A program made the position numbers and the translations under genes. From UHGV virus genome UHGV-1564085: a stretch of 16,355 nt of DNA, one strand, 5' to 3'. The notes under the pieces are model-generated. The model saw only the letters and a list, made by a program, of their open reading frames with translations. It did not search any database and was not told the origin of the DNA. Position 1 is the first letter of the stretch. Every line of letters begins with the position of its first letter. Origin of the DNA: a virus. This document shows, in pieces, positions 1-2,628 of this stretch.

Positions 1-36
1 TACATAAAAAGTCAGATAAAAATATTATCTCGTCAA

Positions 37-342
37 GTGATGAAAAAAAACCTGGCGGAGATGAAAGACTTGATAGATAAAAAAGAATTGGATTTTAATG
101 TAATTCTGCAGGAGATGAAAAATCAGGCCGGAGAAGAAAAAGAAGACATCAAAAACATTACAAAAATGCAGGCTGCAGGTGAGACTTTAATTAAATTTAT
201 TCAATCATTTGACCCGGACTCAACGGGACCAATTATAATTGGTAAAGATATGGATGACAAAAATATAAATGACAACGATCTAATTAACGAAGATATTATT
301 AAGTTCATTTATGTCCTATTAGGTACTGAGTTAGAAAAATAA
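37..342 (+). CDS. Hypothetical Lys/Asp/Glu-rich protein in a very AT-rich stretch; frame is open back to position 1, so it may be 5'-truncated by the window. Probably host flank upstream of dusA.
   Basis: ORF track 37..342; no in-frame stop between position 1 and the ATG at 37; followed by an intrinsic terminator at 383..412; base composition much more AT-rich than the prophage body. Confidence 0.4.
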   Translation: MMKKNLAEMKDLIDKKELDFNVILQEMKNQAGEEKEDIKNITKMQAAGETLIKFIQSFDPDSTGPIIIGKDMDDKNINDNDLINEDIIKFIYVLLGTELEK

Positions 343-382
343 AATGTGAATTTTCCCTATAGCATGGAAGTTTTTACATAAA

Positions 383-412
383 AGAACCCAATATTGATTG
401 GGTTCTTTTTTC
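383..412 (+). terminator. Rho-independent terminator after the 37..342 ORF
   Basis: 10-bp stem agaacccaat (383..392) pairs with attgggttct (397..406), 4-nt loop, T-run 406..412. Confidence 0.6.
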
Positions 413-703
413 TCTATCAGTGCTATTAGCAGGGAGAGATATCACCGTAGTTTAATGTGTGATTTTTATTTATCGTCGAACCTGGATTGTTTATCATTGG
501 CCTTAACAAAGCTAACGGCTAATAAGATTATTTCCATCACTTCGTGAGAGCTTCATGCCTTGAGAGGATCTCAATTTTCTTTTGCAATGAGACAGGCGCT
601 TCCTGTTGTTATGGTATAGTACCCCGCTATTGAGCCTCCTGAACAGTGATGCTGAATAACATAACCCCATGATATATCGATAAAATAATCTCTACATTTG
701 AAA

Positions 704-826
704 ATGCACGGTAATTCTGAAATGCAAAAAATCAACCAAACCAGCGCAATGCCTGAAAAAACTGACGTTCACTGGAGTGGTCGGTTTAGCGTTGCACCAA
801 TGCTCGATAGGATGTACCGTTTTTGA
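704..826 (+). pseudogene. dusA: Truncated 5' fragment of tRNA-dihydrouridine synthase A (dusA'), the displaced native 5' end left at a dusA-targeted integration junction
   Basis: Translation from ATG 704 gives MHGNSEMQKINQTSAMPEKTDVHWSGRFSVAPMLD, which I recognise as the DusA N-terminus including the conserved SVAPML motif; it diverges after codon 35 (808) into RMYRF-stop at 824..826. Confidence 0.6.
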
Positions 827-1061
827 AAAACAACTAGTTATACACTTTGTGGGAGCCTATTGGGAACCTGTTATTCTTAGAAAGCATCATTTGCTCATCA
901 CTTCAATTGACCATGGTTAAAGCCAGCTATAAACTTGACAAACGAGGTAACTGGTTGCTTAGGCCCAAGTGGGCACACCATAAGAAGCTCGTGTTGGTGA
1001 TGAAGCAACCCATGAAGTATCGAGAATAATTATAAAGTTCACTATCTTTGAGGTTTCTTAT

Positions 1062-1634
1062 ATGTTTTGCGAAGAAAAAGTAGCTCAAATGGCTGCATAC
1101 CTACTTCTTAAGCGAGGTGGGCGCATGGCATATCTGAAATTGATGAAGTTGCTCTATCTGTCTAACCGCCAGTCGATTTTGAAGCATGGCAGGATGATCG
1201 GCGAAGATAGCCTTTACTCTATGAAATTTGGACCAGTCATGTCGAATACGCTGAACTTGATTCGCGGTAAGGCTGAAGGCATTGGTGACTACTGGTACAA
1301 CTTGATAGAGACGAACGGGCATAATGTATCGTTGCGTTCAGATCCGAGGGAAATGGATGCAGACGAGGTCTTTGATGAATTGAGTCGTGCAGATATCCGG
1401 ATTTTAGATGAAATCTATTCTCGGTATGGGCATATGAACCGATTTGATCTCGCAAATATGACGCATTTAGAAAGCGTTTGTCCAGAGTGGCACGATCCTG
1501 GCAATTCTCGTAAGCCTATAGACCTGAAAGAAATGCTGATCAGTGAGGGTAAAAGCGAGGATGAGGCTAATCGCATAATTGGCAAAATGGAAGAATCTCA
1601 GAAACTTAAGGAATTTTCTTTGCAATTATCATGA
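1062..1634 (+). CDS. Panacea-domain (DUF4065, SocA/GepA-like) protein, putative antitoxin or immunity component
   Basis: ORF track 190 aa; N-terminal motifs AAYLLL, KLMKLLYL and GPV match the remembered DUF4065 signature; GAGG Shine-Dalgarno 9 nt upstream; stop overlaps the next start by 4 bp. Confidence 0.5.
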   Translation: MFCEEKVAQMAAYLLLKRGGRMAYLKLMKLLYLSNRQSILKHGRMIGEDSLYSMKFGPVMSNTLNLIRGKAEGIGDYWYNLIETNGHNVSLRSDPREMDADEVFDELSRADIRILDEIYSRYGHMNRFDLANMTHLESVCPEWHDPGNSRKPIDLKEMLISEGKSEDEANRIIGKMEESQKLKEFSLQLS

Positions 1635-2050
1635 CGGATTATCAGCCATACAGGAAAGGAACTGTGCTTGCCCCAACTGGGCCATGCAATCATCTTCATG
1701 TGATTTGTAATGATCCTGTTTATTACCCCGTTAACGATTGTTATTGTGTTTTAGTTGTTAATATTTCTAGTATCAAGGATGGTGTCCCCCACGATCCGTC
1801 TTGCGTCTTGAATTCTGGTGATCATCGCTTTATCAAGCATCCAAGTTATGTTGTTTACGCTGAAGCTATAATTTGGCGAGTGGATAACATGGTTAGAAAG
1901 CAGCGATCGGGTGAGATTTCTGTTCATGATGATATGCCAGAAGCTACATTCAATAGAATTCTGGACGGTTTTGATATCTCTGATGAAGTTACGCCAAAGA
2001 ACCTTAAATTTAAAAATAAATATTGCGTATCATCTATTGATGATGAGTAA
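1631..2050 (+). CDS. Uncharacterised 139-aa protein coupled to the Panacea-domain gene; candidate toxin or effector partner
   Basis: ORF track 139 aa; ATGA start/stop overlap with the upstream gene (1631..1634); no family recognised from sequence. Confidence 0.5.
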   Translation: MTDYQPYRKGTVLAPTGPCNHLHVICNDPVYYPVNDCYCVLVVNISSIKDGVPHDPSCVLNSGDHRFIKHPSYVVYAEAIIWRVDNMVRKQRSGEISVHDDMPEATFNRILDGFDISDEVTPKNLKFKNKYCVSSIDDE

Positions 2051-2089
2051 ACAACAGGAATTGTTTCGGTATAACTTCAGGAGTTTTCT

Positions 2090-2263
2090 ATGGAAGATCA
2101 AAAAGCAACCAAGCCACAGGTTAAGTTCGACACAATGAAAGCATTCGCAGGTATGGGTGCTGCTGTTGAAGTTCTGATGAAGGCTGCTCCTAATGCGTTC
2201 ACTCACGCTACTGTCTCTGGTAAAGAGCAGCAGGGTAAGCTTCGTCGTCGCAAAGCAGCATGA
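2090..2263 (+). CDS. Small hypothetical protein (57 aa) not in the ORF track
   Basis: Hand translation: MEDQKATKPQVKFDTMKAFAGMGAAVEVLMKAAPNAFTHATVSGKEQQGKLRRRKAA, stop TGA 2261..2263; AGGAG 6 nt upstream of the ATG; intrinsic terminator immediately downstream. Confidence 0.45.
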   Translation: MEDQKATKPQVKFDTMKAFAGMGAAVEVLMKAAPNAFTHATVSGKEQQGKLRRRKAA

Positions 2264-2286
2264 TCATAGCTGGTGCTTTTTGAAAA

Positions 2287-2308
2287 CCCGCCTTTAGGCG
2301 GGTTTTTT
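2287..2308. terminator. Bidirectional rho-independent terminator between the plus-strand cargo genes and the minus-strand excisionase-like gene
   Basis: cccgcc (2287..2292), loop ttta, ggcggg (2297..2302); T-run 2303..2308 on plus strand and A-run 2283..2286 (T-run on minus strand). Confidence 0.7.
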
Positions 2309-2310
2309 AT

Positions 2311-2592
2311 TTAGTGATGTTCTTTGCCCTTCTGTTTGCTTGTTCTGACCTGTTCCCACTCGATACGTCCTTCTTCTCGTCTTTTGTCTATGTATTCCGC
2401 AAGATCCTGAATATTGATGCAACGTTTTGCTTTTTGTGATGTGCCGATGCGATATGTTGGAACGGGCAACTTACAAGCGTTTGCTTTTGCTTCTGCCGTG
2501 GCTGGACTCATGCCAAAGTACTTTTGGCTAACTGCTGAGAGTTCAATGTTAGGGGTATTGAATTCAGCCATCAGTAAAAACAAGGTGTTCAT
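2311..2592 (-). CDS. Excisionase-like small DNA-binding protein (PrtN/AlpA-type family)
   Basis: ORF track 2311..2619 begins at a GTG; the ATG at 2592 has GGAG 6 nt upstream and gives a start MNTLFLLMAEF typical of this family as I remember it; sits at the end of the early-left operon. Confidence 0.5.
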   Translation of the reverse strand: MNTLFLLMAEFNTPNIELSAVSQKYFGMSPATAEAKANACKLPVPTYRIGTSQKAKRCINIQDLAEYIDKRREEGRIEWEQVRTSKQKGKEHH

Positions 2593-2628
2593 AATTTTCT
2601 CCATCAAAACCGGCTGCACCCGGGAAAA

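Follow-up and report, generated by a model that had tools for sequence, protein, structure and literature searches.

A probable PanAT toxin–antitoxin pair carried as a cargo cassette beside the dusA junction of a lambdoid Escherichia coli prophage

We analyzed two adjoining genes in the virus genome UHGV-1564085, a stretch of 16,355 nucleotides that is referred to below as the window. The window is 100% identical to Escherichia coli chromosomes with a lambdoid prophage integrated in dusA; locus coordinates correspond to window coordinates plus 7401. An initial annotation, made from the sequence alone, had described two open reading frames (ORFs) of 190 and 139 amino acids that share an ATGA, and the sequence bears out both frames and the overlap exactly. 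The genes are called panA and panT in the following.

1062–1634, plus strand: panA, ATG start, Panacea antitoxin of 190 amino acids
1631–2050, plus strand: panT, ATG start, toxin candidate of 139 amino acids with a MazF/Kid/CcdB-type barrel and C-terminal helices
1631–1634, plus strand: ATGA stop/start overlap of 4 bp

A GAGG Shine-Dalgarno motif is located 8 nt upstream of the panA ATG, and the ATGA overlap implies that translation of panT is coupled to that of panA. The exact 190- and 139-residue proteins are present on at least 1000 contigs, and the 139-residue protein has a large family of homologues. Judged by this distribution, both ORFs are therefore real genes and not chance ORFs. In divergent E. 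coli copies both ORFs are intact; PanA differs by 5 amino acids and the toxin by 0–1. Within E. coli, panT differs by 2–5 nt, which is too few substitutions for an informative dN/dS.

RefSeq/PGAP places the start of panT at GTG 1664, yielding a protein of 128 amino acids (WP_014640052.1). The N-terminus MTxYxPYRKGTVLAP is kept in homologues of the 139-residue protein, however, and in those from Pseudomonas the internal position is not a start codon. ATG 1631 with the 4-bp overlap is therefore likely to be the better call, and WP_014640052.1 is likely truncated at its N-terminus. The GenBank annotation of phage Lys8385Vzw has the longer ORF. The stretch AGGAAAGGA directly upstream of GTG 1664 resembles a Shine-Dalgarno sequence and is the probable reason for the PGAP start. 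It codes for the conserved residues Y-R-K-G, and the 11 residues preceding the GTG start are kept in the homologues.

The initial annotation had recognized a Panacea/DUF4065 protein in the 190-residue product by its motifs, and a hidden Markov model search confirms this identity. PF13274 (SocA_Panacea) matches with E = 2.2e-19 and 70.9 bits (gathering cut-off 25.7 bits), spanning residues 27–137 of the protein and positions 1–109 of the 113 model positions. The protein reaches 14.4 bits with the SocA equivalog model of NCBIfam (NF047745), whose cut-off is 190 bits; by these profiles it is thus a Panacea protein and not a SocA orthologue. We compiled 31 PanA homologues. They are uniformly 183–202 amino acids long and conserved across their full length, and they keep the C-terminal region TH..CPEW.DP.GSS.PI...GKSEEEA...MRE...L..F. 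The AlphaFold (AF2) model of PanA (predicted local distance difference test, pLDDT, 93.1; predicted template modeling score, pTM, 0.89) comprises the Panacea core, a short helix (residues 155–161) and a long terminal helix (residues 166–189). PanA contains no HTH, PAD1, ZBD or any other N-terminal domain. No solved structure resembling PanA was found by sequence, and none by Foldseek (best E 2.2).

The founding DUF4065 antitoxin is SocA of SocAB, a type VI toxin–antitoxin (TA) system from Caulobacter crescentus, and SocA carries the same Pfam domain as PanA. SocA acts as a ClpXP adaptor for the degradation of the toxin SocB, which binds to the DnaN clamp. Apart from the low equivalog score, our pair differs from SocAB in the partner, which is a MazF-fold protein instead of SocB.

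The 139-residue protein had been considered assignable to no family. A search of Pfam, NCBIfam and PADLOC indeed returned nothing credible for it, and its sole match in PHROGs is phrog_19071, which is of unknown function. Weak matches to ICMT and DapC lie far below the cut-offs, cover only ~18–40 residues and were rejected as noise. The statement nevertheless does not hold, as the protein has a MazF/Kid/CcdB fold and falls into the catalogued PanT cluster T6 (see below). Homologues were found down to E = 1e-76. A profile search of 1.84 billion representatives yielded 2,710 clusters at E ≤ 1e-3 and 925 at E ≤ 1e-10, and the family members are nearly all 125–150 amino acids long. Among 129 representatives (at most 50% identity) the residues H21, L22, D55, C58, G63, H65, F67, S72, Y76, G113 and S117 are invariant or nearly so. 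A serine or threonine is kept at positions 46–47 throughout these representatives, and no arginine is conserved. The family-invariant polar set thus consists of His, Asp, Cys and His, instead of the canonical Arg/Thr pair of MazF. Residues H23 and C26 are conserved among close relatives only. We had considered a zinc-binding Cys2His2 site (H21, H23, C26 and C58), which was dropped, since H23 and C26 are not conserved in the wider family.

Structure prediction and a fold search, the route proposed in the initial annotation, gave a confident AlphaFold model of the 139-residue protein (pLDDT 90.1, pTM 0.84) with a barrel of the MazF/CcdB type. In a Foldseek search of the PDB the top 48 matches were all MazF or Kid (best E 9e-4, template modeling scores 0.48/0.60). 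In the canonical MazF active site the catalytic residues are an arginine at the start of β2 (R29 in E. coli MazF) and a threonine at the end of β3 (T52). A non-significant hhalign register places H21 on MazF H28, which adjoins R29, and S46 on T52, in keeping with the order of the secondary structure elements. Sequence homology with MazF, Kid (PemK) or ChpBK is not detectable, and the 139-residue protein differs from them in its own invariant set (H21, D55, C58, H65) and in an extra C-terminal helix (residues 122–131). As far as the model tells, the family is related to MazF at the fold level only. The antitoxins differ as well. Those of MazF and Kid are DNA-binding proteins of the AbrB or RHH type with a disordered tail (MazE/Kis-type), whereas here this part is played by a Panacea protein unrelated to them.

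In each of the 14 loci examined, the member of the 139-residue family directly follows a Panacea gene of the same orientation. Most of these pairs have an overlap of −4, and the others a spacing of −1 or +1. The surroundings of these pairs vary. The Shewanella pair is found in an integrase/AlpA island (the class of P4-like or integrase/AlpA islands) and the Vibrio pair adjoins a P2-like repressor and GPA. In Proteus (loci L007–L009) the pairs occupy the tail-fibre end of prophages, next to Abi_2 or UPF0167 together with a peptidase_S8 and an ABC/AAA ATPase. A pair on a JGI metagenome contig (L027) stands beside an N6_N4 methyltransferase and a ResIII/DEAD helicase. Further pairs come from three Pseudomonas species, Erwinia, Rheinheimera and a Methylococcaceae bin. 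At the sequence level, a pair that is kept together amid fully changing surroundings is the standard genomic signature of a TA module.

The Panacea domain was named by Kurata et al. 2022 (PNAS 119:e2102212119, PMC8832971), who compiled a catalogue of the toxins paired with it and validated ten PanAT pairs. In their Dataset S1, toxin cluster T6 is described as 'EndoA/PemK/MazF-family RNAses' on the basis of HHpred (PMC8832971). The T6 pairs are all in the order antitoxin–toxin, mostly with −4 or −1 overlaps, and come from Proteus vulgaris, Pantoea septica, Pluralibacter gergoviae, Photorhabdus, Halomonas, cyanobacteria and spirochaetes (PMC8832971). One of them was validated, the pair of Pseudomonas moraviensis LMG 24280 (PanT WP_083201923.1, PanA WP_083354365.1). 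This PanT is toxic in E. coli, is neutralized by its own PanA and co-purifies with it, and it specifically blocks the incorporation of 35S-methionine, i.e. protein synthesis and not replication (PMC8832971). Several Pasteurellaceae T6 toxins are labeled 'terminase' in RefSeq, which looks like a propagated mis-annotation for a MazF-fold protein of ~130 amino acids.

In order to relate our pair to this cluster we used the beginning of the P. moraviensis PanA, MIFSEQKVAQ (PMC8832971). After removal of the initiator methionine, IFSEQKVAQ was back-translated and scanned over species-representative genomes. The scan yielded six Pseudomonas loci; P. moraviensis was not among them. Three loci were read (Pseudomonas sp. 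App30, P. atacamensis and P. ulcerans), and in each of the three PanA is followed by a protein of 132–134 amino acids with the same motifs as the 139-residue protein. The P. reinekei locus from the scan ends 220 nt into panA. A BLASTP comparison with these close Pseudomonas relatives gave 38% identity for the toxins (E 8e-27) and 42% over the full length for the antitoxins (E 1e-42). The T6 genera Proteus, Pantoea, Pluralibacter and Photorhabdus also yield homologues of the window proteins, and the accession of the Pluralibacter PanA homologue (WP_048253753.1) is consecutive with that of the T6 toxin WP_048253752.1. Taken together, the Pseudomonas relatives and the shared cluster strongly indicate that the 139-residue protein belongs to T6 and link it to the P. 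moraviensis pair.

The two pairs agree in a stand-alone Panacea antitoxin without an N-terminal domain, located 5' of a toxin of ~133–139 amino acids predicted to be MazF/PemK-like, in the antitoxin–toxin order and in the −1/−4 overlap; T6 already includes Enterobacterales. They differ in that the P. moraviensis pair is marked 'NotPhage' in the table of Kurata et al., whereas the window pair rides a lambdoid prophage in dusA of E. coli, and in that the window pair is only ~38–42% identical to the close Pseudomonas relatives. PanA antitoxins reportedly neutralize their cognate toxins specifically, and cross-neutralization with the P. moraviensis pair is therefore not expected. The proposal of a TA module in att-proximal cargo thus stands with the genomic hallmarks of a type II system. 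The description of the partner as an unrecognized effector does not, because its family of toxins is already catalogued and one representative has been validated.

The pair forms part of a cassette of ~1.2 kb. Local alignments against E. coli SMN013SH2 and phage mEp460 show that the shared flanks stop at window position 868 and resume at 2077. In ~550 genomes the megablast breakpoint lies at query positions 1016–1019, corresponding to window 2077–2080.

869–2076: cargo cassette delimited by the flank alignments, with its own upstream region, panA and panT
2090–2263, plus strand: ORF of 57 amino acids, preceded by a good AGGAG Shine-Dalgarno motif (match to phrog_2741 of unknown function, E 8e-36)

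The cassette includes 193 bp of upstream DNA of its own, and its G+C content (38.6–43.1%) is lower than that of the neighboring prophage genes (46.7%). The whole block is present in ~193 of 5,426 complete E. coli genomes, and a further ~550 carry the backbone portion (window ~2077 and beyond) without the rest of the block. The same site is occupied by an alternative cassette of 803 bp, with an unrelated single gene encoding 177 amino acids, in mEp460 and in dusA prophages that are collinear elsewhere. As read from these alignments, the att-proximal site of dusA lambdoid prophages shows itself to be a hotspot of cassette exchange. The 177-residue protein corresponds to WP_062881958.1 (SMN013SH2, L018 3195–3997) and AFM76060.1 (mEp460_023, L017 2784–3317). 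Pfam recognizes no domain in it, and it may represent a further cargo or defense gene. The 57-residue ORF adjoins the PrtN-like gene (see below) in ~740 E. coli genomes and in phage mEp460. By its distribution it is part of the phage backbone and not of the module, since it is backbone-borne and absent from the homologous pairs elsewhere.

We consider it likely that panA and panT constitute a type II PanAT module, a self-contained att-proximal cassette in which the 139-residue protein is a MazF/Kid-fold toxin that cuts RNA and is neutralized by PanA. By analogy to the published homologous pair, with relatives that are 38–42% identical, toxicity, neutralization, complex formation and inhibition of translation would be expected here as well. 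The assignment as an RNase would follow from the predicted fold and from the published labeling data for a 38%-identical relative. We infer the RNase chemistry, the catalytic residues, the neutralizing surface and the trigger as follows.

PanA would be made first, and the toxin would then be translated by coupling at the ATGA. PanA would neutralize the toxin through direct protein-protein binding. Because PanA lacks a DNA-binding or other N-terminal domain, the contact would be supplied by the Panacea core, by the conserved extension at the C-terminus, which includes the long terminal helix, or by both. Both modes of neutralization, via the Panacea core and via an extra region, were seen in other PanAs (Ernits et al. 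2023, PMC10440598). In the lysogen the PanA–toxin complex would be harmless. The toxin would be freed once the supply of PanA stops or PanA is inactivated, e.g. by a superinfecting phage that shuts off host expression or upon loss of the prophage. The free toxin would most likely block translation via RNA cleavage in a groove similar to the active site of MazF. The residues along this groove would be H21 (in the place of MazF H28/R29), S46/S47 (in that of MazF T52), D55, C58, H65, S72 and Y76. A role in abortive infection or in addiction, or in both, is plausible.

Several results weigh against such a toxin. Pfam PemK does not match the 139-residue protein at E ≤ 1. The hhalign comparison with E. 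coli MazF gave E = 0.088 and a probability of 0.65%, that with a five-sequence MazF/Kid profile a probability of 0.3%, and a sequence/profile search of the PDB with the 139-residue protein returned no match. The canonical catalytic arginine of MazF is not conserved in the family, and the chemistry may differ from that of MazF. The link to the validated P. moraviensis pair runs through close Pseudomonas relatives and shared cluster membership. Finally, of the TA pairs predicted by NetFlax, 10 were not toxic in E. coli (Ernits et al. 2023, PMC10440598).

With respect to the role, a tentative proposal is that the pair primarily serves abortive infection or phage defense. Panacea would sense a cue of infection and release or activate the MazF-fold toxin, the infected lysogen would be killed or arrested, and the prophage would in this way shield the host population. 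That Panacea serves to sense infection cues is a hypothesis of Ernits et al. 2023 (PMC10440598), and the literature increasingly links TA modules to defense (same reference). This role concerns the biology of the pair and is compatible with the TA mechanism. The position of the cassette at an att-proximal cargo site with swapped alternatives is in line with it, as is the occurrence of homologous pairs in islands and prophages near Abi_2, peptidase_S8/ABC-ATPase genes, a methyltransferase with a ResIII helicase, or a P2-like repressor. These defense-like neighbors are merely suggestive, however. In PADLOC-DB v2 there is no family match at E ≤ 1 to any of the three proteins searched, PanA and the toxin included, and the searchable literature reports no defense phenotype for a Panacea/MazF-like pair.

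An addiction module is somewhat doubtful as the primary role. Here the pair would stabilize the prophage or the cassette by post-segregational killing, and cells that lose it would be killed or arrested. The arrangement, typical of TA modules and with the toxin coupled translationally, would suit this function, and so would the movement of a self-contained cassette with its own upstream region among unrelated mobile elements. In the decayed prophage remnant of E. coli PSJ-23 (L019 3001–4736) both genes are degraded together: what remains of PanA is annotated as two short fragments, and the toxin breaks off at ~window 1874. Related prophages without the cassette are, however, ~3 times more common (~550 vs 193 genomes) and persist.

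Two further readings depart from MazF-like RNA cleavage. It is unlikely that the T6 PanT employs His21/Asp55/Cys58/His65 for another chemistry or target, for instance as a two-histidine or thiol-dependent nuclease or as a modifying enzyme, in combination with Panacea-sensed abortive infection against superinfecting coliphages. If true, this would represent a new toxin mechanism and the first defense phenotype and trigger for a stand-alone Panacea antitoxin. Very unlikely is a gyrase poison like CcdB of the F plasmid CcdAB system, or some other non-RNase activity on the same barrel. CcdB shares the barrel type, but its structural score is below those of MazF and Kid, which occupy the top ranks, and its antitoxin is different. 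The relative from P. moraviensis that was validated blocks protein synthesis specifically, and not replication, and the serine/threonine at 46–47 and H21 fall in register with MazF T52 and H28/R29 (in the non-significant alignment). A three-gene system including the downstream 57-residue ORF, which lies on the same strand, starts 40 bp past the toxin stop and precedes the only strong terminator, deserves next to no credence and is effectively refuted by the distribution of that ORF, which lies outside the cassette boundary at 2077, occurs without the pair in ~550 E. coli genomes and mEp460, and is found in none of the homologous pairs from other genera.

The Panacea-paired family of MazF-like toxins is already known, catalogued and validated in Pseudomonas, and our PanAT pair is no new kind of system. 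New is the E. coli dusA prophage member of PanAT, carried as a cargo cassette. The assignment provides a name and a testable mechanism for a 'hypothetical protein' that ~190 complete E. coli genomes share with at least two sequenced coliphages, corrects its likely start codon and defines the cassette. A PanAT copy native to E. coli and its phages would be a convenient model for what Panacea senses and for whether PanAT defends, a question of Ernits et al. 2023 (PMC10440598).

The setting of the pair in the prophage and its potential transcription signals comprise the following features.

704–808: truncated or displaced 5' fragment of dusA
907–935, plus strand: weak sigma-70-like promoter candidate (TTGACC-17-TAAACT) inside the cassette, the sole plus-strand candidate upstream of panA
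2282–2307, plus strand: intrinsic terminator with an 11-bp GC-rich stem and a T run, in the phage backbone 3' of the 57-residue ORF
2311–2619, minus strand: PrtN/excisionase-like gene, the next minus-strand gene after the pair

The placement claimed initially, between the dusA junction and the prophage core and opposite to the early operon, agrees with the dusA fragment on one side and the minus-strand PrtN-like and exonuclease genes on the other. The host flank (window 1–808, the yjbM/DUF2713 region and the dusA fragment) has a G+C content of 35%, compared to 47.6% for the whole window. A search for tRNA genes in the window found none. Beyond the pair, the minus strand carries the PrtN/excisionase-like gene, a 3'-5' exonuclease and the remaining early-left operon, followed by the cI/cro region, replication, Q and lysis genes. 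In the PSJ-23 remnant, the lost part of the toxin gene is followed by a glycosyltransferase gene and by insertion sequence (IS) and portal fragments.

Promoter-like sites are not more numerous than in shuffled sequence, and 907–935 is for this reason considered a candidate only. A 14-bp near-palindrome, TTGACCATGGTTAA, at 907–920 overlaps with the −35 element of this candidate and might serve as an operator; PanA itself has no recognizable DNA-binding domain. The terminator at 2282–2307 is the only strong one on the plus strand (RNA fold −19.6 kcal/mol, z = −3.7; none of 200 shuffled sequences folds as well), and the plus-strand transcript probably ends there. The block containing the pair is also present in the sequenced phages SKA5 and Lys8385Vzw, and in the latter the order is int, attP, the Panacea/139-residue pair, the 57-residue ORF and the PrtN-like gene.
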